A stretch of DNA of 61,711 nucleotides from an uncultured virus (IMG/VR IMGVR_UViG_3300042549_004976). Its lineage: Duplodnaviria; Heunggongvirae; Uroviricota; Caudoviricetes. The stretch lies in the IMG/VR virus record IMGVR_UViG_3300042549_004976; one strand, 5' to 3'. A program made the position numbers and the translations under genes. Within the stretch, counting starts at the first letter, position 1. Each line of letters begins with the position of its first letter. Below are positions 1 through 31,349 of this stretch, one piece after another. The notes beneath the pieces were generated by a model. It did no database searches. It was not told where the DNA came from and saw only the letters and a program-made list of their open reading frames with translations.

Positions 1-390
1 ATGAGATGGAATGGATCATACTTTGTAAGCAGTTGTTTAAATTCTCCATATGATGGAGTAGTGGTTACCTATGATGAAAGCACTCCAAAAAATAGTTACG
101 CCAAATTGAATTCTCGTGGAGATGTGATTCGAATCGAAGAAAAAAATGTCATAAGCAATGTGTCTTTGAATGGTATACATTTTTGGAAACACGGTTCGGA
201 TTTTGTTAGTTCTGCGGATTCCATGATAGAAAGTAATGAGCGGTATAACAATGAATTTTATGTTGGACCAACATATAACCACATGATCAAGACGGGAAAG
301 CGAGTTGGCATTTTTCACATACCACGCGAATGTCATAATCCAGTCGGTGTTCCGAGTGATCTTGGAGACTTCTTGGAAAAAAATAAATGA
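1..390 (+). CDS. Sugar-phosphate nucleotidyltransferase-like protein, C-terminal part (probably truncated at window edge)
   Basis: SYAKL..VIRIEEKNVISN..GIHFWKHGSDF..NNEFYVGPTYN..GVPSDL, typical of NTP-transferase-like proteins of capsule/LPS loci. Confidence 0.7.
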   Translation: MRWNGSYFVSSCLNSPYDGVVVTYDESTPKNSYAKLNSRGDVIRIEEKNVISNVSLNGIHFWKHGSDFVSSADSMIESNERYNNEFYVGPTYNHMIKTGKRVGIFHIPRECHNPVGVPSDLGDFLEKNK

Positions 391-716
391 AGAAATATAA
401 ACTTAAAGATATGCATAGAGGATGGTTAATTGGTGATTTTGAACCGTCTGTGCTAAGGACGCAAGATTTTGAGGTGGGTGTTCTCACTCACAAAAAAGGC
501 GAACATTGGGATGAACACTATCACAAGATAGCAACCGAAATCAATGTGTTGGTTGAAGGAAGTATGACGATAAACGGCATACATATAGAGGTTGGAGACA
601 TCTTTATCATTGAGCCAAACGAATCCTCTGCTCCAATTTTTCTAGAGGATTGTAGAGTGCTGTGCGTGAAAACCCCTTCTGTGATTGGAGATAAATATGC
701 AACTATTCGTGAATGA
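387..716 (+). CDS. Cupin-domain protein
   Basis: HYHKIATE..EG motif; 109-aa beta-barrel pattern. Confidence 0.75.
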   Translation: MKKYKLKDMHRGWLIGDFEPSVLRTQDFEVGVLTHKKGEHWDEHYHKIATEINVLVEGSMTINGIHIEVGDIFIIEPNESSAPIFLEDCRVLCVKTPSVIGDKYATIRE

Positions 717-1890
717 GTCTGCACTTGACAGCGAAAAGTATTTCGTAGTCACCTACAAGTTGGAGTCCGACAAGAACCTACGCGATGCCGCTTGGAACAT
801 TGCCATCGGTCAGAGTGTTGGTAATCCAAATGTGCGGAACCGTTGGGAGACAGAGGATTTGTTTAAGAATCACTCTTGTCTAATACTCGCTGACGAGATT
901 GAACTACAGAACAAGACATCAGGAGAAGTCAAGATTGCGTTCCCCGTGATCAACACTGATTGGGAAACAGATGGAATCAGCCATCTGCTGTGTCAGATCA
1001 TGGGTGGTCATGTTGATATTGACTTGGTGAAGAAGTGCCGCGTAGTCAAGTTGGATCTTCCACAAAGTGTTACCAAGCACTTCGCAGGACCAAAGTTTGG
1101 CATCAGTGGTATGAGGAAGTTCACGGGTCAGTACGAAAAGCCACTGCTTGGCGCGATCATCAAGCCCAAGATCGGTATCACTCCAGAAACCCTGTTGGAC
1201 ATGGTTAAAGAACTCGTTGATGGCGGAGTTGACTTCATCAAGGAAGACGAGATCATGTCAAATCCGTCTTTCTGTCCACTAGACAAGCGTGTGCACATGA
1301 TTTCAAATTATCTGCGCTCACAATCTCGTAATGTAGTATTTTGTCATACCATCAACTGTGATCCGCACATTCTTGCGGGTCGTGTTTGCAGAATCCACTC
1401 CCTTGGCGGAAACGGTGTACACATCAATGTGTGGAGCGGATATGGTGCTTACAACAGCATTCGAAAACTAGATCTTCCAATCTACCTGCATTTCCAAAGC
1501 AGCGGTGCAAAGGTTGCGACAAGCGTAAACAATCAGTTCAGTATTAGTTGGTCTGTGATTTGTCAGTTGGCTACTCTCATGGGTGTAGACACCATTCAGA
1601 CAGGAATGGTGGGAGGTTACAGCAATGACGATCCTCAAGAAATACTTGAGTGCATCAAGGTGCTACGAGAAGGAAACACAGTTCCTGCACTCAGTTGTGG
1701 CTTGCATCCAGGATTGGTTGACAAGATTACATCTCTTGTCGGAAATGACTATCTTGGGAATGCGGGTGGAGCCATTCACGGTCATCCAAACGGAACATTG
1801 TCTGGTGCGAAAGCGATGCGACAATCCGTTGATAAGACATACGGAACAGAATATACACACGCAATTGAAAAGTGGGGAAAGATACTATGA
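697..1890 (+). CDS. RuBisCO-like protein (form IV/RLP)
   Basis: IIKPKIG, GGVDFIKEDE, SCGLHPG, GGAIHGHPNG motifs; GGAG RBS before ATG 697. Confidence 0.85.
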   Translation: MQLFVNESALDSEKYFVVTYKLESDKNLRDAAWNIAIGQSVGNPNVRNRWETEDLFKNHSCLILADEIELQNKTSGEVKIAFPVINTDWETDGISHLLCQIMGGHVDIDLVKKCRVVKLDLPQSVTKHFAGPKFGISGMRKFTGQYEKPLLGAIIKPKIGITPETLLDMVKELVDGGVDFIKEDEIMSNPSFCPLDKRVHMISNYLRSQSRNVVFCHTINCDPHILAGRVCRIHSLGGNGVHINVWSGYGAYNSIRKLDLPIYLHFQSSGAKVATSVNNQFSISWSVICQLATLMGVDTIQTGMVGGYSNDDPQEILECIKVLREGNTVPALSCGLHPGLVDKITSLVGNDYLGNAGGAIHGHPNGTLSGAKAMRQSVDKTYGTEYTHAIEKWGKIL

Positions 1891-2507
1891 AGTGGAAAGA
1901 AGATTTGACTCACGACATTAGATTTGGTTCGGTTGTAGACGATATTGACCACCCAATTCCTGAATTGGGATTGAAACCAGCAAGCCCTCCTGCTGAATTC
2001 ACAGATGATAATCATGCGGCTATTCAAAAGGCTATAGATCGGTGCAAGAATAAGCCAAAGACATTCCTAGAAATAGGTGTCTGTAGAAACGGTCATCATT
2101 CATCGACACACACCATATTTAAGAATCTTCCGAGTGATGGAGTTTATCTTGGAGTTGATCTTGATGATAAAACCTTCCTAGACAACAAAGAAAATGGAAT
2201 TCATACTATAAAAACATCTTCTTCCAACTACGAAGAAGTAGTATCTAAATTGAAATCTCTTGGTGTGGATAAGTTGGATTTTATATTTATAGACGGATGG
2301 CACAGTATCAATCAGGTTTTATCTGATTGGGAATACACCAATCTTCTTTCTGATGGCGGTGTTGTTGCTTTACACGATACTACTGCTCATCCTGGTCCTT
2401 TCTTCTTTATGAAATTTTTGAATAGATCCACATGGGAAGTGCACCCTAATCTGTGTCCAAACGATCACGGTTTGGGGTATTGCTTGAAGAATCAGGATAC
2501 AAAATGA
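1887..2507 (+). CDS. Class I SAM-dependent methyltransferase (Methyltransf_24-like)
   Basis: FLEIGV, DFIFIDGWH, GGVVALHD motifs. Confidence 0.8.
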   Translation: MKWKEDLTHDIRFGSVVDDIDHPIPELGLKPASPPAEFTDDNHAAIQKAIDRCKNKPKTFLEIGVCRNGHHSSTHTIFKNLPSDGVYLGVDLDDKTFLDNKENGIHTIKTSSSNYEEVVSKLKSLGVDKLDFIFIDGWHSINQVLSDWEYTNLLSDGGVVALHDTTAHPGPFFFMKFLNRSTWEVHPNLCPNDHGLGYCLKNQDTK

Positions 2508-3502
2508 TAAAGGTTCTATTTGTTACTGCGGTTGGAAATGCCAAATCATATGACTACTTAACAGATGGTATTCTTCACGGACTGAAGACTCGAAAAGATA
2601 AGTTTGATGTATATGAGTGCTTTGGTATGAAGCATCTGTATAAAAATTATCCAACTGATGATAGTCCTGCTTTGTTCGGTAGAAGAAATCTGAATGGTGG
2701 ACCAAACGAACTAGGTTTGGGTCTGTGCATCAAGATGGTTGCTGACAAATTTTTTGATGTGATTGTTTTTGATTGGAGAACATCGAGCAATTTTTGGAAC
2801 AATCATGGGCATTGTCCGTATTGGAAAGAAACAGTTGCAATACAAAATGTTGCATTCTCTGCATATCCAAAAGAGAAGATTGTATTCTTGGATAGTAGCG
2901 ATGACAATGTTGGGAAGTATGAGATGTTTACTCAACCGTTTGTTGGTAAATCAACATACTTCAAACGAGAATTGTATATTGATGATCCATACTTTCATCC
3001 CATAGACATACCTTTTGCTGCGGAAAAGGGAAGCCCTTTGATTTTGTCTAATTCTAAAGACAAGTATCTATCCCATGTAATACCAGAAAAAAAAGATACC
3101 TATATTTTTAAAGATGAATCTTCTTATTATGGAGATTACGCAAAGTCTTATTTCGGGGCAACATGGAAAAAGATTGGTTGGGGATGCTATCGCCATTCCG
3201 AGATCGTGTTTGCTTCATGTGTTCCTTTGTTTCCAGATATTACTCACTGCCCTATGCGAACACTGACTTTTTTTCCAAAAAGCCTTTTTCAAGAGGTTCT
3301 TAATCGCGGTGTGTTGCGTAATACCGCCACAAAGGTACAGAAGTATTCGGATATGTACACTTATGAAAACATTGAAATTAACGAATCTGCTATTGACAAG
3401 TCCTGGTATGATGATATTCTTTACCAAGTATATGATCACGCTCACAAAAATCTCACCACTACAGCAATGGCAGATTATGTTCTGTCTAAACTAGACATAT
3501 GA
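2504..3502 (+). CDS. Putative glycosyltransferase
   Basis: YFKRE, YYGDYAKSYFG..KKIGWGCYRHSEI pattern; glycan-cluster context. Confidence 0.5.
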   Translation: MIKVLFVTAVGNAKSYDYLTDGILHGLKTRKDKFDVYECFGMKHLYKNYPTDDSPALFGRRNLNGGPNELGLGLCIKMVADKFFDVIVFDWRTSSNFWNNHGHCPYWKETVAIQNVAFSAYPKEKIVFLDSSDDNVGKYEMFTQPFVGKSTYFKRELYIDDPYFHPIDIPFAAEKGSPLILSNSKDKYLSHVIPEKKDTYIFKDESSYYGDYAKSYFGATWKKIGWGCYRHSEIVFASCVPLFPDITHCPMRTLTFFPKSLFQEVLNRGVLRNTATKVQKYSDMYTYENIEINESAIDKSWYDDILYQVYDHAHKNLTTTAMADYVLSKLDI

Positions 3503-4320
3503 AACAATCAATTGTATTTCGCGGTAGTATATGCAATGACCGATACAAGACTAATTTTTTGAAAGACTCTGTTTCGGAACTGCGTAAATGGTTTTTTGGT
3601 GAAATCATAATTTCTACATGGCATGGTCAAGAAGAAAATGCCAATTGTATCAGTGGTGTTGATAAGATTGTTTACACTCAAGACCCCGAATCGGGATTGG
3701 TTGCACATAATCGGAGGCAGCATATTTCGTTCAGAGAAGGAGTAAAGGCTAGTTCTGGCGATGTTGTTTTTGTGACACGAACAGATTGTCTTCTGACGAA
3801 GGATCCATTTTATTTAATGGACTGCAATCAAGATCATGATACTCGTTTTCGTTTTGTTAGCAGAAGAATGGTTGCTGGAAACATGATGACATTTTCCCCA
3901 AACCAAGGTTCTTCTTCTAGTGAAAAGTGGGACGGCTATTTTAGACTGGGAGATTGGTTTCATATGGGAATGCGTAAAGACATTCTTTTGTGGGGAGATG
4001 TTTTAGAATTTTCAGAACAGTTAAATGCAGATGTGAATGGAATACAGACACCGAATCGTTCGGTTGAACAGTTGTGGCTGATGTCTGCCATAAATAAATA
4101 CAGCAAAGACAAGATAGATTTGCAGAAATATCAGTTTATGGATGTATATGATGCATGGGCTGGAATTCTAAATAATTTTAGAGTAGTCAATACCCGATCC
4201 ACTGCGGGAGTACACAACTTAAACTGGAATCATAAGTCCGAGTTTCATCCTCTGTATGTGACAGAGGATGAATACAATACTGCTTTTTTAAATCGTTATG
4301 GAACTATCATAAAAGGATAA
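3499..4320 (+). CDS. WavE-like LPS/glycan synthesis protein
   Basis: SIVFRG..EIIISTW..DP..NRRQ..RTD..DWFHMG..EQLW pattern. Confidence 0.6.
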   Translation: MKQSIVFRGSICNDRYKTNFLKDSVSELRKWFFGEIIISTWHGQEENANCISGVDKIVYTQDPESGLVAHNRRQHISFREGVKASSGDVVFVTRTDCLLTKDPFYLMDCNQDHDTRFRFVSRRMVAGNMMTFSPNQGSSSSEKWDGYFRLGDWFHMGMRKDILLWGDVLEFSEQLNADVNGIQTPNRSVEQLWLMSAINKYSKDKIDLQKYQFMDVYDAWAGILNNFRVVNTRSTAGVHNLNWNHKSEFHPLYVTEDEYNTAFLNRYGTIIKG

Positions 4321-4322
4321 TC

Positions 4323-5243
4323 GTGGAAACCAAAGACTTCCTGTTTTTCAACTATTCGTGGGTGGTTAACTCTACTTTCTACTTTGAGTCCTTTGCCAAG
4401 AAAGGACACAGCATAGACATTGTTACAGAAAAAGATCTCCATTCTTTTGTTCCGCAGAACAAGTACAAAAATGTTGTGCTATATCTCCATGAACCGTGGA
4501 GTCTTCCTATAACTGATCACCTAATAAACACATACTTCAACGATGCTGTTTTGATTCAGCATGATGATACGGATTTTGAAGATGTTCAATATTGGAGCAC
4601 TCGCGTTCCTGATCTGGTGATGCAGAGGGAATATACAGACAATACTAAAAATCCTCGTGGTTCTGCTATGGGTGCTTTCCATTTCCCCATTCATTCGTGG
4701 TACAATCCGTCCATAACAGAAAAACCGTATGATCTGTGCTTCCTGGCAAACATGACGCATCCTAGACGAGTCATGTTTGCCAGGAAGATGATGGAGTTGA
4801 TGAACGGTAGACTAAATCATTTGGTTTGGAAAGTAAACATAGAACCTCATGTGAATACATCTTCTCAGTTCTACAATAAGAATGCCTTCAGTGAGCAGAA
4901 GGAAGACACAAAGATAATTGTTAACAAGACCAAGATTGGACTGAACGATTTTGGAAATTCTTATGAACAGTGGAGAACATGGGAATACGCAAGTGCTGGT
5001 ACGGCAATACTTATGCCAAAGATGAAAACCAAGTGTGTATCAGAAGGCTTTATGCCTTTCAACGAATACACTGTATTTCGTGATGATTACTCTGATTTGG
5101 AGGAGAAGATACTTTTCCTGCTAGAAAACAATCGGTATATGGAATACGGCACGATGGCTAAAGAAGCCTATGATAAAAGACACAATCCCGAAAAGTGTTT
5201 TGAGTTTTATTACGAGCAAATTATGAGGTATGCCAAACAATGA
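4323..5243 (+). CDS. Putative GT-B glycosyltransferase (CgeB/Glyco_trans_1_2-like)
   Basis: C-terminal KIGLN..RTWEYASAG..DLEEKILFLL. Confidence 0.6.
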   Translation: METKDFLFFNYSWVVNSTFYFESFAKKGHSIDIVTEKDLHSFVPQNKYKNVVLYLHEPWSLPITDHLINTYFNDAVLIQHDDTDFEDVQYWSTRVPDLVMQREYTDNTKNPRGSAMGAFHFPIHSWYNPSITEKPYDLCFLANMTHPRRVMFARKMMELMNGRLNHLVWKVNIEPHVNTSSQFYNKNAFSEQKEDTKIIVNKTKIGLNDFGNSYEQWRTWEYASAGTAILMPKMKTKCVSEGFMPFNEYTVFRDDYSDLEEKILFLLENNRYMEYGTMAKEAYDKRHNPEKCFEFYYEQIMRYAKQ

Positions 5244-5680
5244 ATATCATTTCTCATCGTGGAAATCTATATGGACGAGATCCTTCACAGGAAAACTCTA
5301 CACAGTATATTCAAAAAGCACTTGAACACGGATTTGATGTTGAGATAGATGTTTGGTATAACACCGATCTAAAGCAGTTTTATCTTGGACATGATATGCC
5401 AACATATTCCGTGACAACTTCTTTTTTAAAAATTGATAGGTTGTGGTGTCATGCTAAAGATGAAGAATGTTTTTCTAAACTTCTTGATCTTGGGGTGAAT
5501 TGTTTTTGGCATGAAAATGATAGATTTACACTTACATCACACGGCATTGTTTGGTGCTATCCCAACAATTGGTGTGAGCGAGGAGTAACCGTGGTTTTTG
5601 ATCCACCTTCATCTGAAATACTTTCAAAAAACATTTTTGGTATATGTGTTGATGATCCTGTGAATTGGAGAAAAATCTAG
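5240..5680 (+). CDS. Glycerophosphodiester phosphodiesterase-like protein
   Basis: ISHRGN..EN..GFDVEIDVW..LGHD..LWCHAK. Confidence 0.75.
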   Translation: MNIISHRGNLYGRDPSQENSTQYIQKALEHGFDVEIDVWYNTDLKQFYLGHDMPTYSVTTSFLKIDRLWCHAKDEECFSKLLDLGVNCFWHENDRFTLTSHGIVWCYPNNWCERGVTVVFDPPSSEILSKNIFGICVDDPVNWRKI

Positions 5681-6294
5681 TGAAACCATTTATAGTATCA
5701 TCTCATTACAATGAGGATTTGTCTTGGATTGTGCATCAAACAGAGTACAATTATAAGATATACACAAAGAATCACAATCCATCAGATTTCATTCCGAAAG
5801 ACAAGATTGTTTACATTCCCAATAAAGGGAACGAAGCGTCTTCTTATTTGTGGTATATCATAAACAACTACGATTGTCTTCATGAGAGCGTTGCTTTTGT
5901 TCATGGTCACTATACGGCATGGCATCAGAATATGGACATTCTGACCGCTATAAGAAAATACGATGGCTCGGATTACATGACTCTGAATGATCTTTCGCGG
6001 AGAAATGTGTTTCACGATAATTGTGGGATAGAAGGAAACGCTATAGGAAATTGGAATTGGGCTAGGCAAGGCATGATTGAGATTGGTATGGAAGTTCCTA
6101 TTCCAACAAGACTCGAATTTACTCAGTGTGCTCAGTTTGTTGTTACAGCCAGCAGGATACGGTGCAATAGTTTGAATTTCTATAAGCGTTGTATGGATTG
6201 GTTGATGAGGACTCCATTTCCTGACGCTATCTCTGGTAGAGTTTTTGAGCATATCTGGCATTACATAATGACACACAAGGAAATTGAAAAATGA
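5680..6294 (+). CDS. DUF3431-like protein (glycosyltransferase-like)
   Basis: SHYNEDLSW, NKGNEASSYLWYIINNYD, FVHGH, CAQFVV, FEHIWH; GTG start inferred. Confidence 0.65.
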   Translation: MKPFIVSSHYNEDLSWIVHQTEYNYKIYTKNHNPSDFIPKDKIVYIPNKGNEASSYLWYIINNYDCLHESVAFVHGHYTAWHQNMDILTAIRKYDGSDYMTLNDLSRRNVFHDNCGIEGNAIGNWNWARQGMIEIGMEVPIPTRLEFTQCAQFVVTASRIRCNSLNFYKRCMDWLMRTPFPDAISGRVFEHIWHYIMTHKEIEK

Positions 6295-7385
6295 TGTATG
6301 ACTATATGATCGTTGGTTCTGGTCTATTTGGGGCAATATTTGCCAGACAGATGACTGATGCGGGTGCACGGTGTCTTGTTGTAGACAAACGCAAGCATAT
6401 TGGTGGAAACTGCTATACCCGTAACGAAGGTGGAATTCATGTTCACGAATACGGTCCACATATATTTCATACGAGCAGTGACCGCGTATGGGAATACATG
6501 AATCGGTGGACTCGGTTCAATCATTTTGTGTATCGCCCCCGTGTCATTCATGGAGACAACCTATACTCGTTCCCCATCAACCTGTTTACACTATATCAGT
6601 TGTGGGGGGTAAAGACACCTCAAGAAGCACAAAACAAATTGGCTCAAGTGCGGCTCACCATTCCATCCCCGTCAAACCTAGAAGAATGGGTACTGTCCCA
6701 AGTGGGAGAAGAAATTTACGAGAAGTTCGTGAAGGGCTACACCATGAAGCAGTGGAACCGCGATCCCAAGGATCTTCCTGCGTCCATCATCAAGCGACTT
6801 CCCATTCGGCTCACTTATGATGACAATTACTTTGATGACAAGTATCAAGGTATACCTGTCGATGGATACACGCCCATCTTTGAAAAACTATTGAGTGATA
6901 TTCCCGTTGAAACAAGTGTAGACTATCTTAAAGATCGTGAGCGTCTTGAGAATATGGCAAAAAAGATTGTATACACGGGAGCCATAGACGAATTCTTTGG
7001 CTGCGATCTAGGCAATCTTGAGTGGAGAAGTCTGAGGTTTGAACATCAGACACTTCAGATTCCTGACTATCAGGGAGTAGCAGCAATAAACTACACCGAT
7101 GCCACGATCCCATATACTCGCGTGGTGGAACACAAGCATTTCATATTTGGAAAACAGGATCATACTGTCATCACCCACGAGTACCCACAGAATTGGGATA
7201 ACACAAAGGAAAAGTTTTATCCAGTGACTGACGATAGAAATAATGAACTGTATATTCAGTATAAGAATAGGATTGACACCGAGAGATACATATTCGGTGG
7301 TCGTTTGGCGGATTACAAATATTACGATATGCACCAAGTTGTAGGGTCTGCCCTAACACGCAGTGAAAAGGAAATTGAAAGATGA
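6291..7385 (+). CDS. glf: UDP-galactopyranose mutase
   Basis: GSGLFG FAD motif, HIGGN, HEYGPHIFHT, GRLADYKYYDMHQ. Confidence 0.95.
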   Translation: MMYDYMIVGSGLFGAIFARQMTDAGARCLVVDKRKHIGGNCYTRNEGGIHVHEYGPHIFHTSSDRVWEYMNRWTRFNHFVYRPRVIHGDNLYSFPINLFTLYQLWGVKTPQEAQNKLAQVRLTIPSPSNLEEWVLSQVGEEIYEKFVKGYTMKQWNRDPKDLPASIIKRLPIRLTYDDNYFDDKYQGIPVDGYTPIFEKLLSDIPVETSVDYLKDRERLENMAKKIVYTGAIDEFFGCDLGNLEWRSLRFEHQTLQIPDYQGVAAINYTDATIPYTRVVEHKHFIFGKQDHTVITHEYPQNWDNTKEKFYPVTDDRNNELYIQYKNRIDTERYIFGGRLADYKYYDMHQVVGSALTRSEKEIER

Positions 7386-8323
7386 AAGCATTAGTAACAG
7401 GTGGAGCGGGTTTTATTGGATCGAATTTGGTTGATCGGCTAATTTTGGAAGGTCACGAAGTCACAGTGATAGACAACGAATCATCTGATGCCCATGATCA
7501 CTTCTATTGGAATTCAGCAGCAAAAAACTACAAGTACGATATCAATGATTACACGATGGTTCGTGAATTGTATGAAGGAATAGACATGGTGTTCCATTTT
7601 GCTGCTGAGGCTCGTATTCAGCCGTGCATTGTTGATCCACTAAAGGCTGTGAAATCCAATATGCTTGGTACTGCTAGTGTGTTGCAGTGCGCTCGTGTAT
7701 GCGGTGTAAAGCGTGTCATCTATTCATCCACATCATCCGCTTATGGACTGAAGAATACTCCTCCTCTTGTTGAGACAATGCCAAACGATTGCCTTAACCC
7801 ATACTCGGTGACCAAGACAGGTGGTGAGGAATTATGTAAAATGTTCTCCAAACTGTACGGCTTAGAGACAATCATATTTCGATACTTCAATGTGTACGGA
7901 GAGCGTCAGCCACTGCGTGGACAATATGCTCCAGTGATTGGCATCTTCTTGCGTCAACGGGCAGCAGGAGAATCCATGACCATTGTTGGTGACGGAGAAC
8001 AGAGGAGAGACTTCACCCATGTTAGCGATGTGGTTGAAGCCAATATCAAGGCTTCTCAGTTTATTGCTCCTCGTTATAATATTACCGACAATGGCTCGTG
8101 TCAGACTTATCGAGGATGGGAATGGGGTCAGATTTACAATATTGGAACAGGAACCAATCATTCAGTGAATGAGATTACTGCATTTATGGGTGGTCAAACT
8201 GTAAATATTCCTCCACGCGCAGGGGAATCCCGAATCACTCTTGCTAATGCAAATAAAGCAAAGGAACATCTTGGATGGATTCCCCAAGTTCGTCTTGAAG
8301 AGTGGATTGCCAAGCATAAATAA
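7382..8323 (+). CDS. NAD-dependent nucleotide-sugar epimerase/dehydratase
   Basis: TGGAGFIG, YSVTK (YxxxK), RYFNVYG, RDFTHV. Confidence 0.92.
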   Translation: MKALVTGGAGFIGSNLVDRLILEGHEVTVIDNESSDAHDHFYWNSAAKNYKYDINDYTMVRELYEGIDMVFHFAAEARIQPCIVDPLKAVKSNMLGTASVLQCARVCGVKRVIYSSTSSAYGLKNTPPLVETMPNDCLNPYSVTKTGGEELCKMFSKLYGLETIIFRYFNVYGERQPLRGQYAPVIGIFLRQRAAGESMTIVGDGEQRRDFTHVSDVVEANIKASQFIAPRYNITDNGSCQTYRGWEWGQIYNIGTGTNHSVNEITAFMGGQTVNIPPRAGESRITLANANKAKEHLGWIPQVRLEEWIAKHK

Positions 8324-8343
8324 CCGTACAAGGAGATCGTGAA

Positions 8344-9552
8344 ATGTCTACAGTATGCCTCTCAATGATCGTTAAGAATGAAACGCACATTATCCATGAA
8401 TGCCTCAATTCAATGTGGCAAAACATTGACTATTGGGTGATCGTGGACACAGGATCCACAGACGGAACCCAAGACCTTATCCGCACCTTCTTTGCAGAGA
8501 AGGGAATTCCTGGCGAACTCATTGAGAAGCCGTGGGTAGACTTTGGCTACAACCGTAGCGAAGCCCTTGCTCTCTGTGATGGCAAGGCAGACTACGCTTG
8601 GATGATTGATGCCGATGACAAGATCACAGGCAATTTTGTGTATCCCAACGGCAAGAATCTCGTGCACGATGCGTATGCTCTCAAGTGTGGACGAGACGGA
8701 TGCGTGTGGTGGCGTAATCAAATCTTTAAAACGGGTATTGGTTGGAAGTATGTCGGCGTTCTCCACGAGTACGCCCATTGCGAAAAGCAGCCACTAAATC
8801 AATTCCGTATTGAGGGTGATTATGCTCTTGAGGCGCGTACACTTGGTGCGCGTAATGTAAATATTACACAGGTAGAGAAGTACACAAAGGACGCAGAGAT
8901 GCTGCTCAAGGCTCTAGAAACAGAGCCAACGAATTCTCGCTACCAGTTCTACCTTGCTCAGTCGTACTTTGACTCACAGCAGTGGGACAACGCCATTGCA
9001 GCGTACTACAAGCGCGTAGAGATGGGTGGATGGGAAGAAGAGTGCTACTACTCCTTGTTCCGCATTGCCCTGTGTGAAATCTCAAAGAATTCTGATTGGT
9101 CAATTGTTCAGCAGAAATTCCTTGACTCGTATGACTACCGTCCGTGCCGCGCAGAACCGCTTCACGCCATTGCCAGATTCCTTCGCATGAACGGTCGTCC
9201 ACGCGCTGCGTACCTGTTTGCGAAGGAAGCCGCGCAGTTGCCGTACCCACAGCAGGACATTCTCTTCATTGATACAAATGTGTACAAGTGGATGGCATTG
9301 GATGAACTAGCCGCTACGGCATTCTTTACCCACGATTTCAAGATTGGCTACTCCGCTTGCGAAACCCTGCTAAAGCAGAGCCGCTTGCCAGAGAGTGAAA
9401 TTGAACGAGTTCAGAAGAACCACGCTGCGTACCTTGAGAAAGTCAAGGAAGTGGATGCACTGACACAGAAACTCGCCAAAGACACCAAGATGCCCCCGCT
9501 TGCTCCCGTGCTAAATACAAAGCAGCACACCTTTAAAAAGCGGAGAAAGTAA
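8344..9552 (+). CDS. GT2 glycosyltransferase with C-terminal TPR repeats
   Basis: CLSMIVKNE, DTGSTDGT, IDADD, VLHE, FYLAQSY TPR helices. Confidence 0.85.
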   Translation: MSTVCLSMIVKNETHIIHECLNSMWQNIDYWVIVDTGSTDGTQDLIRTFFAEKGIPGELIEKPWVDFGYNRSEALALCDGKADYAWMIDADDKITGNFVYPNGKNLVHDAYALKCGRDGCVWWRNQIFKTGIGWKYVGVLHEYAHCEKQPLNQFRIEGDYALEARTLGARNVNITQVEKYTKDAEMLLKALETEPTNSRYQFYLAQSYFDSQQWDNAIAAYYKRVEMGGWEEECYYSLFRIALCEISKNSDWSIVQQKFLDSYDYRPCRAEPLHAIARFLRMNGRPRAAYLFAKEAAQLPYPQQDILFIDTNVYKWMALDELAATAFFTHDFKIGYSACETLLKQSRLPESEIERVQKNHAAYLEKVKEVDALTQKLAKDTKMPPLAPVLNTKQHTFKKRRK

Positions 9553-21262: not shown

Positions 21263-21942
21263 AAGAAGTAAAGGTTCTTGATAACGGATTCGTGCAGTAT
21301 GTTTCTCATATGGGAAATGATTTAACTGTTGCAAATGCAGCGCGTGTATCGTTTCACAAGATTAGCGAAGAGTTCACCGACAAGGACGGTAAACTTATTA
21401 ACTATCTTGCCAAGCACAAGCATTGGACTCCGTTCGCCCATCCACAAATCACACTGCGGATCAAGGCTCCCATCTTTGTTCGCACCCAACTCTTTAAACA
21501 TAAAGTTGGCATGACTGAGAATGAAGTAAGCCGCCGCTATGTTTCCGATCCACCCGTGGTGTACCTTCCTCGTTGGCGTGGCAAGCCTACAGGTGGAGCC
21601 AAACAAGGCTCCGAAGACTTTATGCCTATAGATGACGAGTACAACACTGTGAATCGACACTACGAAATAACGGTGCGGGAATGCCTACTAACCTATGATG
21701 AACTCCTGAAGCGGGGCGTGGCTCCCGAACAGGCTCGTGCGGTGCTGCCACAGGGAACCTATACCGAATGGTGGTGGACGGGATCGCTCTCGGCATTCGC
21801 AAGAGTGTACTCACAACGCAGTGATTCTCATGCACAATGGGAATGTCAAGAGTACGCCTCCGCAATAGCAGCAGTAATCTCTCCACTATTCCCCCATTCT
21901 TGGGGTGCTTTAACCGCCAAGCCACCCATCTCCCTCGCCTAA
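21259..21942 (+). CDS. thyX: Flavin-dependent thymidylate synthase
   Basis: AARVS, HWTPF, NEVSRRY, PEQARAVLP, HAQWE. Confidence 0.93.
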   Translation: MKEVKVLDNGFVQYVSHMGNDLTVANAARVSFHKISEEFTDKDGKLINYLAKHKHWTPFAHPQITLRIKAPIFVRTQLFKHKVGMTENEVSRRYVSDPPVVYLPRWRGKPTGGAKQGSEDFMPIDDEYNTVNRHYEITVRECLLTYDELLKRGVAPEQARAVLPQGTYTEWWWTGSLSAFARVYSQRSDSHAQWECQEYASAIAAVISPLFPHSWGALTAKPPISLA

Positions 21943-21945
21943 ATA
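21939..21945 (+). promoter_or_regulatory. T4-type late promoter (CTAAATA)
   Basis: CTAAATA 5 nt before ATG 21951; same or related motif at 8315, 9511, 31325, 35473, 36341. Confidence 0.65.
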
Positions 21946-21950
21946 CGGGG

Positions 21951-23612
21951 ATGACCGATTCACCTAGTTCAAACTCACCCACAGAGCCGCGCCGAACTGC
22001 TGCCATTTCCAGTGGTAAGTATTCATCGGGTTCTGTATTTCGTTTAGTACGGGAGATCCGTGGTTCCGCGTACTCTGTGGGTGACGAGTTTATTCTTTCA
22101 GAAGAGCAGGACTGCTTTAATCCTAGCATTCTACGGCTTGGTGGCGTTGGCGAAAACTATTTTGCTGACCCAAGTGGTCGCCCTCTTAAAATTGAAGCGG
22201 GAGACAAGCAGATTGATTCTATTTTTCAATTGGTAGAACCCACTGCTGTACCATTACTAGAAGAAATTAAAGTGGTTTCGCCTCCTGTACGAAATGTTTC
22301 AGAGACAGAGTTTTCTGCATTCCGTTCAGGGTTGGCTGATCTACTCACTGAGATTTCTGCTGTTACGCCCACACAAGGTGAACGAGGCGAACGGGGTACT
22401 CGTGGATACACAGGTGTTCAGGGAGCAAAAGGCGATAAGGGTGACAAGGGAGATCAGGGAGAACAAGGACAAGCAGGAATCACTGGTGAACGGGGACAGC
22501 AAGGTGAGCAGGGAGTTGCTGGTGTTCAGGGTGATAAGGGAGACAAAGGCGATACGGGTAGTAGTGGTGCTGATGGAGTGCAAGGAGTTCAAGGCAACAA
22601 GGGTGATAAGGGTGATCGCGGAGATCAGGGGCTGCAAGGAGTTCAGGGCAAGAAGGGCGACACGGGAGTTGCAGGTAAAAAAGGAGACAAGGGCGACAAG
22701 GGAGATCGCGGTGAGCAAGGACTTCGCGGTGTTAGTGGTGCGCGAGGCGAAGCAGGAGTAGCAGGAGTAGCAGGTAAACGCGGTGCTGATGGTGCTGACG
22801 GCAAGGCGGGAGTCAAGGGAGTCCGAGGAGCCAAGGGAGATAAAGGCAGCACTGGCGATTCAGGTATTGTTTCTGCTAAGTTTCCACTTGTTTATGACGC
22901 AGCCGAAAAAACCATCTCAATTGATGAGGCACGGCTAGACAAAATTCTCAAGAAGATTCTTGGCGGCGGCAAGGTGTCTCCACAAGACATGGGTTGGCTT
23001 GCGTCCACGGGTGGTGGCGGCAAGGTGGCTGTGCACATTAACGGCTCCAAGATTACTCCTGATGTTCGCACACTAGACTTTACAGGCGCAGGAGTCACGG
23101 CTTCCAAGGTTGGTGGCAAGGTCACCATTAATTTTACAGGCACAGGTGGTGGAACCGCCGCAGCAGGAACAAACTTCTACTATCGAGAAAATCCACCTGT
23201 TGCGATTGATGGAGTTACTATTGGTTCTCGTTGGATGGACTCCGACAACGGACAAGAGTACATCTACATTAATGACGGAAATACTCAGCAGTGGGTGCAG
23301 CCAGCAATTCCAAATGTAATATCAAGTGTTGTTCACACCGTTGTGACTATTAGTGCCGCAACTTACGAGGCAAGCAATCTAGACTATTACATTGGGGTTA
23401 GTTCTGGAGTTCCATCAACTATTACTCTGCCTGAAGGACCAGCATACGGGCGAGAGGTAATAATTAAAGATGAATCAGGGCAGTCAAACACCTACCCTAT
23501 CACGGTGGTTGGTGCAGATTCCGCTCTCATAGATAATCAGGCTGGTGTTACTATTGATACCAACAATAGAGCAATTCATTTTATATACAACAGTGGATGG
23601 AGAATAATATAA
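21951..23612 (+). CDS. Collagen triple-helix fibre protein
   Basis: About 50 G-X-Y triplets (~22375-22865); C-terminal ITLP..GREVIIKDESG domain. Confidence 0.85.
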   Translation: MTDSPSSNSPTEPRRTAAISSGKYSSGSVFRLVREIRGSAYSVGDEFILSEEQDCFNPSILRLGGVGENYFADPSGRPLKIEAGDKQIDSIFQLVEPTAVPLLEEIKVVSPPVRNVSETEFSAFRSGLADLLTEISAVTPTQGERGERGTRGYTGVQGAKGDKGDKGDQGEQGQAGITGERGQQGEQGVAGVQGDKGDKGDTGSSGADGVQGVQGNKGDKGDRGDQGLQGVQGKKGDTGVAGKKGDKGDKGDRGEQGLRGVSGARGEAGVAGVAGKRGADGADGKAGVKGVRGAKGDKGSTGDSGIVSAKFPLVYDAAEKTISIDEARLDKILKKILGGGKVSPQDMGWLASTGGGGKVAVHINGSKITPDVRTLDFTGAGVTASKVGGKVTINFTGTGGGTAAAGTNFYYRENPPVAIDGVTIGSRWMDSDNGQEYIYINDGNTQQWVQPAIPNVISSVVHTVVTISAATYEASNLDYYIGVSSGVPSTITLPEGPAYGREVIIKDESGQSNTYPITVVGADSALIDNQAGVTIDTNNRAIHFIYNSGWRII

Positions 23613-23616
23613 TTCC

Positions 23617-24048
23617 ATGCCACTAGATTTCCCCCCATCACCAAGCGTAAACAATACCTACTCCTTTGGCGGAAAAACATGGAAGTGGAATGGTGCTGCA
23701 TGGGAGGTATTTTTCAGTATTGATAGCGGTGCTGCTGTCGTGGGCACTTCATTTGAAGTGGAAGTAACTGCTGGAGCAACTCAATACATTATTGGATTAC
23801 CTAATAATGTGGTGATAGGCAGTGGAATCAGCACAAATTATTTGAATTTTGCTAATGGATCCACCTTTTCGGGAAACTCTTCAGGCGTAACTCTTTCTAA
23901 TACTTTGAATGTTTCGGGTGATCTAAATATAGCAGGACGACTCCTCGTAGATGGGGTCATTGTCAGCAAATCAGGATTCAGTGGATTTACTGGAAACGGT
24001 ATAGTTGAGCCAGTAACTGATGTAGACCTAGACGGAGGAGAATTCTAA
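23617..24048 (+). CDS. Virion fibre-associated protein
   Basis: MPLDFPPSPS..GKTWKWNGAAW N-terminus; ends DGGEF. Confidence 0.6.
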   Translation: MPLDFPPSPSVNNTYSFGGKTWKWNGAAWEVFFSIDSGAAVVGTSFEVEVTAGATQYIIGLPNNVVIGSGISTNYLNFANGSTFSGNSSGVTLSNTLNVSGDLNIAGRLLVDGVIVSKSGFSGFTGNGIVEPVTDVDLDGGEF

Positions 24049-24049
24049 A

Positions 24050-25531
24050 ATGGCAATTATCCGTATAAAACGATCAACAGGAACCAATTTACCATCAGGT
24101 CTTACCTTTGGCGAGTTGGCGTTTGTGCAAGGCAGTGGAGCCACCGCAAATCGTTTGTATATTGCAGGTAGTTCAGGTGGAACCGCATGGGTCGGCGCAG
24201 AGATTCTCAATTCTCCCATCTATTGGAGTGGACTAACTGCACAAACCACTCTTGCAACCATTTCTGCAACCGAAAACCGAATTGTTGCTGGTGGTGGTGT
24301 AACATTTGCATCAGATATAACAGTAAATATTAGTGCAGGTAAATATTTTGGAAAGTATACTCGCGGAGACATTATTCCCGCAACAGGAAAAACTGTTAAA
24401 GAAGTGGTAGAGTTGTCACTTAGTGAAGTGATTACACCCCTGATAACTATTGTCCCATCAGGAACTATTGATTTTGGTCAGACATCTGGAAGCATCTCCC
24501 TTGCTGTTACCTACACCATCAAGACCGCAGGAGCAAGCGCAGCAGGTTCCACGCTAGAATTCCAGTATAACGGTGCTGCAAGTTGGACAACTCTATCTAC
24601 TGCCCTAAAGGATGATGCCAAGGGAACGGATCAGCAATACACTGGTTCATTCACGCATAACACATGGAATCGTGCGAGTGATGCGGGATCTGGTGGTACA
24701 TACGGAACCACAGTATTCAACTACAGATACACCATTCACGACACATTCGGTGCAACCGCAACCATATCAACAACGAGAACTCCTGGAGGTGCATCTTCTC
24801 CAACTGTTGACACTTTTGTTGCTGCTGGAAATGTGTCTGCTCCCGAAACCAATACCGTGCGAGAAAAAGGAAATACTTACTCCACCATTACAGCCACTTT
24901 AAGAAGAGTGAATCAGTATGTTCCTCTGACATTCTGGAAACTCCAATACAGAGAAAATGGCATTGGTGCATACGCAGACACAAACACGCCTTCTGCTGGT
25001 TTTCAAGCAGTTAGCGGAAATCCTGGCACTGTTTCTATCAGTACCAATCACGCCCCTGCTAACACAGTGAATCGGGTTGACTATCAAGTTGTGGTTCGTG
25101 ATCAGTATAGAGACACGATAAACGCAAATGGTGTAGATGTCACTCCAACACCTAATCCTGGTGTATCTTTTGGTTACAAGATATTCTACGGGGCAACCGC
25201 TTCCATTCCAACGAATTCGGCGGGTGTGCGTACTCTTCCTGGTGTAAGCATGGCAAGCGGAACCAATGCGTTCCCTAATCCATTCACACTGAACAGCGGA
25301 ATTGCATTTAAAAACTTTGTTATTGCCTTGCCTACAAACATAACCGTATTAACACAAGCAGATTTGGAAGCAATTAGCGCAAGTCCAGGCTACGCACTAA
25401 GCGGTTCGCTGACCGCTGTTAATGATGTAGCAGGAAACTCTAAAAATTATAATGTGTATACCCTGACGAACGGAAGTACCTATGCCGAAAATCACCGTCA
25501 TGTCATAACAACCACAGGAACGGTAGCCTAA
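24050..25531 (+). CDS. Fibre/structural protein with Mtd_N-like N-terminus
   Basis: IRIKRS..PSGLTFGELA; Thr/Gly-rich beta domains. Confidence 0.6.
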   Translation: MAIIRIKRSTGTNLPSGLTFGELAFVQGSGATANRLYIAGSSGGTAWVGAEILNSPIYWSGLTAQTTLATISATENRIVAGGGVTFASDITVNISAGKYFGKYTRGDIIPATGKTVKEVVELSLSEVITPLITIVPSGTIDFGQTSGSISLAVTYTIKTAGASAAGSTLEFQYNGAASWTTLSTALKDDAKGTDQQYTGSFTHNTWNRASDAGSGGTYGTTVFNYRYTIHDTFGATATISTTRTPGGASSPTVDTFVAAGNVSAPETNTVREKGNTYSTITATLRRVNQYVPLTFWKLQYRENGIGAYADTNTPSAGFQAVSGNPGTVSISTNHAPANTVNRVDYQVVVRDQYRDTINANGVDVTPTPNPGVSFGYKIFYGATASIPTNSAGVRTLPGVSMASGTNAFPNPFTLNSGIAFKNFVIALPTNITVLTQADLEAISASPGYALSGSLTAVNDVAGNSKNYNVYTLTNGSTYAENHRHVITTTGTVA

Positions 25532-25532
25532 T

Positions 25533-27497
25533 ATGCCACTTCATCAATTCACAAGCGGTCTTCAATTAGGATACGGAATACAGCCCGTAAATCCTGTTCC
25601 TGTTGATTCATTTTCTGGTCCATATGCTGCGGGAACAACCACTGCCGCAGTTGAATTGGCAAATGCCACCATTCCTGCTGCCCTGCGATTCTTGTCACTT
25701 GAAGTACGAATTTTGGCTCCTTATGAGGGTGCAACCCTTGCATACAAGTACTGGTATCGTGGCAGTACAGCAGATAATGGACTTGTAGAATTTTCGTCTG
25801 CTTCCAATTCCACTGATTCTGGAGTAACACTAGCAGTCGCTGGCGCAGGAATTGTGCTGTCTCCCGCAGGAGGAACAGGAACAGTTACATTTATCAATAA
25901 TGGTGTGTTGTCATTCAACGGCAATACTGGTGCTGTTAGTGGTGCTTCACTTGGTGCAAACACCTTTACGGCACTCAATACCTTTAATGCAGGTATCACC
26001 ACATCATCTATTTACGCTTCGACAGGATCCACTTTTGGTGCACGAGTTGATGTTGCTGGTGTTCTTGATGTTGCTGGTGGTGTCACACTAGAAGCAACTC
26101 TTGATGTAACTAGTGTTGCTAAATTCAATAGCAATGTTACTCTCGGCGATGAAGTTGCAGATATTATAACCGTAAATGGTCGGTTTATAGCAAATGCAGG
26201 TATTACAGCAAATGCAGGTATTACTACAGCATTCATCTACGCTTCCACAGGATCCACTTTCGGTGGAACCCTCGTAGTAAACGGTGGAGCAACCTTTGCC
26301 GCGACAGATCACTCTGGTGTTGCTAGATTTGCAGCAGGACTCACCACAAGTACTCTTGATGTTGTGGGCATCTCCAGGTTTGCAGGTGGTTCAACCTTCT
26401 CAGGCATCGCTACATTCACTTCTGGTATTACTACTTCATTCGTCTACGCTTCGACTGGTTCTACCTTTGGCGCACGAGTCGATGTTGCAGGTGTTCTTGA
26501 TGTTGTTGGTGGTGTCACACTAGAAAATACTCTTGATGTTAGTGGTGTAGCGCGGTTCACCGTAGGTATTACCACATCAACTCTTAATTCTTCAGGAGCA
26601 ATTAGAGCCAACGGAGGACTGACTGCTTCCACTCTTGATGTTCAGGGTGTTTCCAAGTTTGCAGGTGGAGCAACATTCGCTTCCCCTGCTGATTTTGCTT
26701 CTGCTGCCAAATTTGCTGTGGGGTTGACCTCTAGCGGAGATGTGGTTGTTGGTTCTGCTGGTACCGTACTCAAGACAAACGGCGATGCCACCATTGGTGC
26801 AACTCTCACGGTGAACGGAAACTTCTTTGTTGCAGGAACACTGACCACTGTTAACCGAACCGATCTTTCCATTGACGATAAGACCATTACTCTTGGTAGA
26901 ACTCTTGCAGATGATGCTCTTGCAGACGGTGGTGGACTGTCTCTCAATGGATCATCTCCTAGAACACTCACTTGGAGCAACAGTGCCGATGCGTGGACAA
27001 GCAACGACAACTTTAATGTTACTACTGGTTACGGCTACAAGGTAAACAACACCACAGCCCTTGCTTCAGGCATGGTTCACGGGTTGAGTGCTTCGACAGG
27101 AATAATTACTGGTGGTACATGGGCAGCAAACCTGATTGGTCTTACCTACGGGGGAACAAACAAGGATCTATCGGGAGCGGCTGCTTTTGGAGTTGTATAC
27201 AAAGATGCCGACAGTATGGAAGTCACGGCAGCAGGAACTTCAGGACAAATTCTAAAGTCCAACGGTTCTGCTGCCCCAACATGGATAGATGTGACTTCTC
27301 TGTCTGGTCTAACAGCAGCAAAGGTCAAAACCACCGCCACGAATACCGCAGGAACATACTTCCTTACATTCGTAACGGCTGCTTCAGACTCTACTGATCT
27401 GTTTGTTGATACCACCACAGGCGTAACCTACGATGCAAACACAGGTTTATTGTCCTGCACAAAGTTAGAAGCACTTGTTGATGGTGGTACATTTTGA
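25533..27497 (+). CDS. Tail/head fibre protein with internal repeats
   Basis: Repeats of GITTSxIYASTGSTFGARVDVAG; IDDKTITLG..ADGGGL; ends DGGTF. Confidence 0.7.
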   Translation: MPLHQFTSGLQLGYGIQPVNPVPVDSFSGPYAAGTTTAAVELANATIPAALRFLSLEVRILAPYEGATLAYKYWYRGSTADNGLVEFSSASNSTDSGVTLAVAGAGIVLSPAGGTGTVTFINNGVLSFNGNTGAVSGASLGANTFTALNTFNAGITTSSIYASTGSTFGARVDVAGVLDVAGGVTLEATLDVTSVAKFNSNVTLGDEVADIITVNGRFIANAGITANAGITTAFIYASTGSTFGGTLVVNGGATFAATDHSGVARFAAGLTTSTLDVVGISRFAGGSTFSGIATFTSGITTSFVYASTGSTFGARVDVAGVLDVVGGVTLENTLDVSGVARFTVGITTSTLNSSGAIRANGGLTASTLDVQGVSKFAGGATFASPADFASAAKFAVGLTSSGDVVVGSAGTVLKTNGDATIGATLTVNGNFFVAGTLTTVNRTDLSIDDKTITLGRTLADDALADGGGLSLNGSSPRTLTWSNSADAWTSNDNFNVTTGYGYKVNNTTALASGMVHGLSASTGIITGGTWAANLIGLTYGGTNKDLSGAAAFGVVYKDADSMEVTAAGTSGQILKSNGSAAPTWIDVTSLSGLTAAKVKTTATNTAGTYFLTFVTAASDSTDLFVDTTTGVTYDANTGLLSCTKLEALVDGGTF

Positions 27498-27538
27498 TCA
27501 CCTAGTTTGATCGCCTAGATAGAGTGAAAGGCTTTACT

Positions 27539-27754
27539 ATGAACGAACCAAATTACAATGAGACTGTTGTGATTCCGTTGCTTCAGAAGAAGTTTCAGGA
27601 ACTCACTAACGCAAATCTAGTATTGGAGGCTAATCTTCTTGTGGAAAAGGAGAAAAATGCCTATTTACAAAAGCAGATAGCGTACATTCGTGGCGACACG
27701 CCACCAAAGAAAAAGAAAAAAGATGACTTGGTGATAGACGGCAACTCCGTCTAA
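27539..27754 (+). CDS. Small coiled-coil protein, paralog of 30810-31328
   Basis: NETVVIPLLQKK..ANLVLEANLL. Confidence 0.55.
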   Translation: MNEPNYNETVVIPLLQKKFQELTNANLVLEANLLVEKEKNAYLQKQIAYIRGDTPPKKKKKDDLVIDGNSV

Positions 27755-27762
27755 AATATTTA

Positions 27763-28620
27763 ATGGCAAAAATAATCACAAAATATTCAACGACTGGTGG
27801 CTCATCTCCAAGTGGTTTGACCACTGGCGAGTTGGCTGTGAATATTTTAGACAAAAAACTGTATGTTGGTGGTGCAGCAGGACCTGTAAGTCTGTCTGAT
27901 TCGTATGTAAACTCTTTTAATGGTAGAACAGGTGCAGTTCAGGGTGTGTCTGCCGCCAACGGACTTACAGGTGCGGTTACATGGGCAGCGGGTACAGGTC
28001 TAGATGTTTCCTCTGGTGGTGGAGCCATTACCTACGGAATTGGTGCGGGATTCGCACTACTACGCTCTGTTGGAAACACAGCCGCCTTGGATAATATATC
28101 TAATCCGAGCATTGGTGACTTGGTGTTTGTGCAGGATCGAGGAACTTACTACTACTGGGATTACTACGCCGCAGGAGGGACACTCGCGTGGATTAACATT
28201 AGTTTAATTTCAAATGCATTGCAAGGAGATCTGAACGGTGACGGATCCGTTAATGGTGCAGACCTCGGCATTTTGCTTAATAGTTGGTCTGTACTATCTG
28301 GTAGCAATTCCTTGACTATCGGTGTTAAAGACGGCATAACAGGTGCTTTTAAAATATTTGCAGACGGAAGTGCCAATCCCAAGAAGCAAGAAATGGTTGT
28401 GGTGTCAACCCAAGGCACCACATCAGCATTCTCAGTAAACACAGACACTCTGTATTTTACGGGATTAGTTGAAATAGACGGCGAGAATGTGGATAAGGTT
28501 GCGTTAACCGTCTACAACGGAAAAACAGAACTGTATGGCGACACCACCGTTAACGGAACCCTACAACTCCTTAACGGGGGAATTTCGGGTGGATTTATAG
28601 ACGGTGGAACATTTGTATAA
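27763..28620 (+). CDS. Fibre protein with Mtd_N-like N-terminus and dockerin-like loop
   Basis: PSGLTTGELAVN; GDLNGDGSVNGADLGILL; ends DGGTFV. Confidence 0.65.
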   Translation: MAKIITKYSTTGGSSPSGLTTGELAVNILDKKLYVGGAAGPVSLSDSYVNSFNGRTGAVQGVSAANGLTGAVTWAAGTGLDVSSGGGAITYGIGAGFALLRSVGNTAALDNISNPSIGDLVFVQDRGTYYYWDYYAAGGTLAWINISLISNALQGDLNGDGSVNGADLGILLNSWSVLSGSNSLTIGVKDGITGAFKIFADGSANPKKQEMVVVSTQGTTSAFSVNTDTLYFTGLVEIDGENVDKVALTVYNGKTELYGDTTVNGTLQLLNGGISGGFIDGGTFV

Positions 28621-31328: not shown

Positions 31329-31349
31329 ATAGGGGTAGGAGAATTTACA

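Follow-up and report, generated by a model that had tools for sequence, protein, structure and literature searches.

A T4-like phage carries a gene for a divergent RuBisCO-like protein (RLP) which, as judged from its aligned catalytic residues, is not a form I–III carboxylase. The RLP is linked across many loci to a nucleotidyltransferase (NT), a GDPD-like phosphodiesterase and a cupin. Its fold, its residue pattern, this conserved linkage and its natural fusions are direct observations. The cassette very probably takes part somewhere in the synthesis of a glycan donor. The RLP clade has been published before; no description of the cassette or its chemistry was found in the open-access literature, and its pathway context likewise appears to be undescribed there.

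The RLP gene and its phage setting

The window, that is, the whole stretch of 61,711 nucleotides that was analysed, is part of virus record G000 (123,711 bases, estimated to be 68% complete). The RLP gene occupies positions 697–1890 on the plus strand and runs from ATG to TGA without an internal stop, giving 397 amino acids; GGAG lies six bases 5′ of the ATG at 697. The gene placed at these positions by an earlier note, made from the sequence alone, is thus confirmed as an intact open reading frame of the RuBisCO fold. It stands in a glycan island with the following genes.

1..390, plus strand: C-terminal part of the NT (247 aa in full); RmlA/GlmU-like fold, closest PDB sequence 4evw
387..716, plus strand: cupin-like protein, 109 aa; HxH-x4-E motif, PHROG 24762
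697..1890, plus strand: RLP, most probably of the Form IV-like clade, 397 aa; Pfam, NCBIfam and PDB matches, model, alignment
1887..2507, plus strand: SAM methyltransferase, Methyltransf_24-type (Pfam); adjoins the RLP gene here, optional elsewhere
2504..3502, plus strand: 332-aa protein within the island; no Pfam, NCBIfam or PHROG match
3499..4320, plus strand: WavE-family protein; Pfam E 1.4e-11
4323..5243, plus strand: Glyco_trans_1_2-like glycosyltransferase; profile match
5240..5680, plus strand: mini GDPD-like phosphodiesterase, 146 aa; core partner, motif residues
5665..6294, plus strand: DUF3431 protein; profile match
6291..7385, plus strand: UDP-galactopyranose mutase; above the NCBIfam cut-off
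7382..8323, plus strand: NAD-dependent nucleotide-sugar epimerase/dehydratase; profile matches
8344..9552, plus strand: GT2 + TPR glycosyltransferase; profile matches, last gene of the island

The start of the NT gene lies 5′ of the window edge, by which the gene is cut. The full 247-aa gene is present in locus L002, which shares 9887 identical bases with the window; two viral RLP loci are identical to the window. The genes around the RLP are tightly packed: the cupin start overlaps the NT stop at 387–390, the RLP start overlaps the end of the cupin gene at 697–716, and the methyltransferase start overlaps the RLP end at 1887–1890. The cupin itself has no Pfam match, and homologous domains match Cupin_2. 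The WavE-family protein is regarded as a candidate ketosyl transferase. The island (G000:C1 58500–71500; window 1–9550 and upstream) has about 40% GC compared with 45% for the genome, and reaches about 3.5 kb upstream of the window with more glycosyltransferase-like genes and DUF6165.

The carrier of the RLP gene is a T4-like phage. The window encodes DNA polymerase B, RecA/UvsX, a DnaB-like helicase and dUTPase, and T4-like head and tail genes were recognised by eye upstream of it in G000. Other genes of the window include a class II (B12-dependent) ribonucleotide reductase at 33521–35440, found here in a T4-like phage. The segment 11140–14458 encodes a UvdE UV endonuclease, a destabilase-type lysozyme, an AdoMet decarboxylase, whose end is overlapped by an HNH protein, and an N6/N4 DNA methylase. 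The segments 21837–33023 and 37908–42248 encode a collagen-repeat protein, tail-fibre-like genes and several large proteins without a Pfam match, among them a minus-strand reading frame of 1446 amino acids; these proteins are possible targets of phage glycosylation. No RLP match was obtained among the 50,697 phage records of INPHARED, and thus no cultured carrier was found there. A plasmid search with the RLP returned only OiaX/RbcL types of about 30% identity. For window positions 1–3500 no RNA holder was listed, which is evidence in neither direction.

Family placement of the RLP

Both RuBisCO domains were detected by Pfam (RuBisCO_large, E 4.6e-37; RuBisCO_large_N, E 2.5e-4), and a PDB sequence search gave 99 matches, the best of which are of the form III and MtnW types. 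The AlphaFold model of the RLP (mean pLDDT 93.8) is tied between form III 2cwx (Z 45.0, rmsd 2.2, 380 aligned) and MtnW 2oem (Z 44.5, rmsd 2.5, 368 aligned). The best-scoring NCBIfam model, form III, reaches 186 bits, far below its cut-off of 497; the two MtnW models give 161.5 and 132.9 bits against cut-offs of 409 and 513.6, and OiaX gives 151 bits against 700.

An unrooted tree, in which long branches meet, was built with 7 form I, 4 form II, 1 form III and 14 proteobacterial RLP references. In it, 18 of the 44 rows, including the window RLP, form one side of a long branch (SH-aLRT 100). In agreement with the RuBisCO-like assignment of the earlier note, this clade stands apart from forms I–III and from other RLPs. 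Jaffe et al. (2019, PMC6389311) reported about 80 phage ‘Form IV-like’ sequences that group with Beckwithbacteria, and their main text leaves the function unclear. A homologue from a Beckwithbacteria MAG (L086) is 50% identical to the window RLP over residues 7–396 and falls into the same clade with support of 100. The 2019 set (about 85 sequences) and the loci collected here have two of 12 sample prefixes in common and no identical scaffold name (PMC6389311, as far as its published names go). On sequence grounds, the window RLP most probably belongs to this Form IV-like phage/Beckwithbacteria clade, whose members are likewise phage-borne, divergent and outside the other RuBisCO forms (PMC6389311). 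The NT, the GDPD-like protein, the cupin and the glycan context are not named in the main text of that paper, although its Fig. S1 on genomic context may show them. The earlier note had called the RLP step undescribed; this does not hold for the clade, which had been published, but it stands for the function, since none is given in the main text of PMC6389311.

Several relatives are unusual in architecture. Two short Form IV-like RLPs (about 358 aa, 38% identical) lie beside an NT on phage-like contigs that were binned into Sphingobacteriales and Balneola MAGs (L089, L090). In P0167, a Form IV-like RLP carries an unassigned domain of 325 aa fused to its N-terminus.

Active site of the RLP

To map the catalytic residues, the RLP was aligned with genome-derived sequences of form I (7), form II (4), form III (1) and other RLPs (14); the numbering is that of spinach (RLP residues in brackets). 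K175 (K156), K177 (K158), K201 (K182), D203 (D184) and E204 (E185) are kept, as are H292 (H265), S379 (S333), G381 (G335) and G403/G404 (G357/G358). Replaced are E60 (G38), N123 (G104), H294 (Q267), R295 (S268), H298 (A271), H327 (Q301) and K334 (Y308). The alignment agrees with the earlier reading that K175/K177 and the K-E-D-E carbamate/Mg site are kept, and all five replacements called by eye, at E60, H294, R295, H327 and K334, proved right; that at N123 had not been listed. An intact form I–III set of catalytic residues was looked for in the alignment and was not found.

The replacements are shared by the relatives of the window RLP. G38, G104, Q267 and Y308 are invariant in 199 of 199 close relatives. 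At residue 268, 161 of them have S and 38 have K; at residue 301, 170 have Q and 29 have H, so that the loss of H327 is not clade-wide. H242, N244 and R47 are clade-specific and invariant among the close relatives (n = 199), and K175/K177/K201/D203/E204 and the P1-phosphate site are invariant in the clade. The metal site and the P1 phosphate site, next to the carbonyl, are thus kept, and the distal phosphate site is remodelled. The invariance of the replacements points to a maintained but different catalytic site rather than to decay.

The view that the protein is a carbon-fixing RuBisCO boosting host metabolism has a complete fold, a carbamate site and a best NCBIfam score to form III on its side. 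Set against these, E60, N123, H294 and K334 are replaced invariantly in all 199 relatives, the form III score stays far under its threshold, and the clade is separate on a long, fully supported branch; we consider this view practically untenable. The statement of the earlier note that the protein does not fix carbon is borne out by the replacement of E60, N123, H294, R295, H327 and K334.

The comparison with MtnW (2oem, 2zvi, 4nas) is closer, the fold (Z 44.5), the Mg/carbamate site, Gly at E60 and the loss of K334 being common to both. The RLP might accordingly be an MtnW-like enolase or a phosphate-eliminating lyase that yields a diketo or deoxy sugar, processed by the cupin before nucleotidylation, and its exchange for an HAD in other cassettes would resemble that of MtnW plus MtnX for MtnC. 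MtnW, too, is without E60 and K334 equivalents (4nas alignments; L368), its structure is equally close, and the swap of an RLP for a single HAD has a precedent in methionine salvage (PMC6302742). However, the window RLP is only about 26% identical to MtnW, keeps K177, scores below the MtnW cut-offs (161 and 133 bits against 409 and 514) and has Gly in place of the MtnW Lys at the N123 position. This Lys is presumably the general base. No dehydratase gene was noticed among the conserved RLP neighbours either, and we regard the MtnW-like reaction as unlikely. From the OiaX/OiaT apiose-pathway RLPs, the window RLP differs in its score (151 bits against 700) and in the replacement of H294, R295 and K334.

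Conserved partners of the RLP

The surroundings of RLP genes were scanned with purpose-built profiles over ±8 kb, and a non-redundant set of 58 loci was defined (RLP below 90% identity, flank of at least 3 kb). The NT is present in 56 of the 58 loci, in 50 of them within 2 kb; the mini-GDPD is found in 49 and the cupin in 48. WavE or WavE-like genes occur in 42 loci, the methyltransferase in 21 and a β-PGM-like HAD in four; 54 loci are without this HAD and 56 without a kinase. Among the best 80 of 180 viral loci, NT was scored in 76, GDPD in 68, cupin in 53, methyltransferase in 33 and β-PGM-like HAD in seven. The corresponding numbers for the best 80 of at least 374 metagenome loci, many of which are short, are 65 for NT, 55 for GDPD, 66 for cupin and six for HAD. 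The linkage of the RLP to NT and cupin is strengthened by natural fusions, namely RLP–NT–cupin (P0121, P0122) and RLP–NT (P0125); a partial GDPD–RLP fusion also exists (P0163). NT was scored in seven of nine RLP loci on genome contigs; of the other two, L084 shows the start of an NT where its contig breaks off, and L083 is without one. Glycosyltransferase genes surround three of the nine, and two look phage-derived. On MAG contigs of Beckwithbacteria, Patescibacteria and Planctomycetales, the module is likewise placed among glycosyltransferase genes. A marine/SAR11 subclade of RLPs has no cupin nearby.

The coupling to an NTP-transferase and a cupin that the earlier note had read from this one locus is therefore conserved (56 and 48 of 58 loci, with fusions), and linkage to glycan genes in the form of NT, GDPD and WavE-like genes is seen in most of the 58 loci. 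The methyltransferase was likewise named there as a coupled gene. It does adjoin the RLP gene in the window, but with 33 of 80 viral and 21 of 58 non-redundant loci it was rejected as a core partner. The third core partner, absent from the earlier note, is the GDPD-like protein at 5240–5680 (68 of the best 80 of 180 viral loci; not within 8 kb in nine of the 58 non-redundant loci). H6, E35, D37, H51 and K73 are invariant in 15 aligned rows of the mini-GDPD; the two His and the ExD metal motif are, we assume, catalytic as in GDPD/PI-PLC proteins. The window protein has no Pfam match. Weak matches were obtained in the PDB (E 0.028) and, with a longer homologue, in Pfam (E 0.022), and a longer homologue is annotated as PI-PLC/GDPD.

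This neighbourhood also bears on the idea of an auxiliary metabolic gene for methionine/MTA salvage that serves the SAM decarboxylase and methyltransferases of the phage. The window does encode an AdoMet decarboxylase and several methyltransferases, and the isomerase RLP of R. rubrum acts with a cupin (PMC6302742). Yet no MtnA-like (PF01008) or MTA nucleosidase/phosphorylase (PF01048) match was found in the roughly 68% complete G000, and no methionine-salvage genes are among the conserved RLP neighbours, which, like the fusion partners, are NT, GDPD and glycosyltransferase-like genes. A salvage role is considered very improbable.

The NT family in cassettes without the RLP

The NT family also occurs apart from the RLP. 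Among the best 80 of 584 NT-anchored viral loci, HAD was found in 79, GDPD in 73 and the RLP in one, the ratio of HAD to RLP being biased because the loci were ranked on an HAD-type first sequence. Of 161 NTs placed in a tree, nine that lie beside an RLP, from SAR11 and marine phages (support 100), nest within the HAD-adjacent NTs at 67–70% identity, which indicates that an NT with hardly any change is able to pair with an RLP as well as with an HAD. With HAD-type NTs, the window NT shares only about 45% identity. In the cultured cyanophages S-CAM9 and B23, the NT is fused to a β-PGM-like HAD. Their cassette resembles that of the window in its NT (about 40–43% identical to the window NT), mini-GDPD and WavE-like genes, and differs in the HAD fusion and the lack of an RLP. 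In the cultured cyanophage Bellamy the NT is fused to RpiB and in S-SKS1 to a DHBP-synthase-like domain, there beside a kinase, a small HAD and a transaldolase; a cluster on an E. coli plasmid (L094) adds PRK and a class II aldolase. These neighbours tie the NT family to ketose-phosphate chemistry.

Three arrangements merit separate description. The S-SKS1-type cassette (L274:5001–8539; L278–L320) is conserved in phages and combines an NT with a DHBP-synthase-like protein (36 of 43), a kinase, a small HAD (39) and a transaldolase-like protein (37); it possibly makes a branched or otherwise unusual ketose donor, and no published description of it was found. The L094 cluster (NZ_CP145712.1, 6022–13224) comprises tandem NT, GtrA flippase, GT2, GDPD, HAD and class II aldolase genes and a membrane protein fused to a phosphoribulokinase-like domain, and is a candidate periplasmic pentulose-addition system. 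The PRK-type cluster was found on only two plasmids among 5426 E. coli genomes, and with these two matches no link to O95/O97 xylulose was made; a blastn search of E. coli genomes with NT or HAD–NT DNA gave no match. Finally, some RLP-less cassettes (L190:9019–10116, L192:8711–9820) have, next to the cupin, a second NT that ends in a small HAD-like domain; this may be a fourth route of supply.

The GDPD gene is partitioned over the cassette types. Among 43 kinase-anchored viral loci it is present in eight, each of which also has an HAD or RLP cassette, while the remaining 35 are without it; in enterobacterial kinase-type loci it is found in none of four. HAD and RLP do not strictly alternate, since 13 of 160 RLP loci contain an HAD, and in eight of these HAD and RLP have one NT between them (L007, L027–029, L054, L121, L152 and L156; three are near-copies, and in L007 the HAD does not adjoin the NT). 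The cupin is a much more frequent neighbour of the RLP (53 of 80) than of the HAD (9 of 80). A rule by which the substrate is a bisphosphate with HAD and a monophosphate without it was rejected, as the P2-site residues do not track the presence of HAD.

Link to fructose-containing capsules

A relative of the phage NT (E 4e-39, 26% identity) is found in E. coli locus L324 (NZ_CP128888.1), together with a small HAD, a 522-aa kinase-domain protein and a WavE-like piece. From its gene order and size, not from its annotation, we take L324 to be a K4-type capsule locus. A possible link between wavE and fructose in V. cholerae, on which no paper was found in the open-access literature, was not counted as evidence. 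Deletion of kfoE removes fructose from the E. coli K4 polymer (PMC8858990, PMC7925653), and P. multocida bcbE or bcbG mutants lose the fructose branch (PMC13552107). BcbE and BcbG would correspond to the kinase fusion and the NT, and the small HADs of the kinase cassettes match the BcbF model below its cut-off. The kfoE and bcbEFG systems thus share a same-family NT and, in the K4-type locus, a WavE-like piece with the phage cassette; they have a kinase and a small HAD instead of the RLP, and neither GDPD nor cupin. C. jejuni HS:1 was rejected as a further example, since its fructose relies on HS1.08, and IA3902 showed no second capsule despite an HAD/NT-like insertion (PMC7901785).

The 522-aa KfoE-like protein (L324:8435–10003; L321–L323) has a choline/aminoglycoside-kinase-like domain at residues 212–509 approximately. 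Its sequence suggests a sugar kinase and not the fructosyltransferase named in the literature, the WavE-like neighbour being the better transferase candidate. Locus L322 (E. coli NZ_CP025842.1, 67903–77000) is a galF-linked ABC-type O-antigen locus with a small HAD, a kinase fusion, NT, WavE and two WavE-like genes, and may be the O92 fructan locus.

Proposed biosynthetic route

We propose, with somewhat less than even confidence, that the RLP shifts a carbonyl to yield a ketose 1-phosphate, which NT and GDPD convert into an activated ketofuranose. A sugar-phosphate isomerase or similar step towards an unusual glycan monomer, as inferred in the earlier note, is also the reading preferred here. 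In the first step, the RLP would form an enediolate and move the carbonyl along the chain of a ketose monophosphate of the host, such as xylulose- or ribulose-5-phosphate or possibly fructose-6-phosphate; by renumbering, the shift would yield a ketose 1-phosphate, in the reverse sense of the R. rubrum MTRu-1-P 1,3-isomerase. The NT would then make an NDP-1-ketose, which the GDPD-like enzyme would cyclise to the 1,2-cyclic phosphate and open to the ketose 2-phosphate. In the fourth step, the NT would make the NDP-2-ketofuranose, unless the cyclic phosphate itself is the donor, and a WavE-type protein would finally pass the ketofuranose to a virion or host-surface glycan.

The reasoning starts from the phosphate on the anomeric O2 that a ketofuranose donor would require. 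A kinase and a phosphatase, which place the phosphate in the heptose route, could put it there directly, making GDPD unnecessary. The GDPD fold works through cyclic phosphates. The path from ketose 1-phosphate through NDP-1-ketose and the 1,2-cyclic phosphate to ketose 2-phosphate would fit the presence of a GDPD in cassettes without a kinase and the retention of its His/ExD motif. An HAD could derive the ketose 1-phosphate from a bisphosphate. As most RLP cassettes are without kinase and HAD, the RLP step should be phosphate-neutral. The RLP of R. rubrum converts MTRu-1-P into MTXu-5-P, and the same fold thus interconverts pentulose 1- and 5-phosphates (PMC6302742). The R. rubrum RLP resembles the proposed enzyme in the migration of the carbonyl between pentulose 1- and 5-phosphates and in its cupin partner (Imker 2008, PMC6302742). 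The likeness is one of chemistry, not of sequence: its role, as described there, is catabolic sulfur salvage on a methylthio substrate, with no NT or GDPD. Several observations speak against the ketofuranose scheme. The single NT of most RLP loci would have to act twice, and the fructose knockouts concern the kinase-type cassette, which has no RLP or GDPD and an NT of 26% identity. The cupin, absent near the marine subclade, has no step in it. A bisphosphate may still be the substrate, as K268/H301 are kept in many clade members.

The loci in which HAD and RLP share one NT would suit an RLP that alters the sugar instead. In the same donor pathway, it would act as a C3 epimerase or in a branched-chain rearrangement, together with the cupin, and an HAD of the cassette or the host would perform the phosphate step. 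HAD–NT, cupin and RLP are lined up together in L054, L121, L152 and L156, the cupin prefers the RLP to the HAD as counted above, and branched sugars are handled by the RLPs that act in the catabolism of apiose and hamamelose (PMC10176493; PMC6302742). On the other hand, most non-redundant loci contain neither the β-PGM-like HAD (54 of 58) nor a kinase (56 of 58), the sampled apiose-type RLPs keep the H294, R295 and K334 that the Form IV-like clade has lost, and the marine/SAR11 subclade is without a nearby cupin. A change of sugar identity is possible, but we lean against it.

Returning to the carbonyl-migration route, its most specific form is put forward only tentatively and is rather doubtful: the RLP may be the first biosynthetic RuBisCO-fold enzyme, an ATP-free isomerase of ketose 5/6-phosphates from central metabolism to 1-phosphates that feeds an undescribed cyclic-phosphate route, through NT and then GDPD, to nucleotide-activated ketofuranoses.

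Implications

Few RLPs have measured functions, all of them in salvage or catabolism (PMC10176493). The Form IV-like clade is large, its members having been found on at least 180 viral and at least 374 metagenome stretches, and it has been given no function since 2019. Its gene context suggests a short list of candidate substrates and a reconstitution with four proteins. The present analysis adds the partition of GDPD over three cassette types, the GDPD–RLP fusion, the nesting of the NTs and the counter-examples with both HAD and RLP. Several databases label Form IV-like genes as ‘ribulose-bisphosphate carboxylase large chain’; on the result obtained here, they should no longer count as viral carbon fixation. 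Neither PMC7685785 nor the main text of PMC13552107 defines which nucleotide donor serves for fructofuranose and xylulofuranose in bacterial glycans, a question on which the cassette bears. If the proposed route is true, the kinase-, HAD- and RLP-type cassettes would supply one class of ketofuranose donor by three routes, KfoE would be recast as a kinase instead of a fructosyltransferase, and the activation of fructose and pentuloses by bacteria for capsules and O-antigens would be explained.
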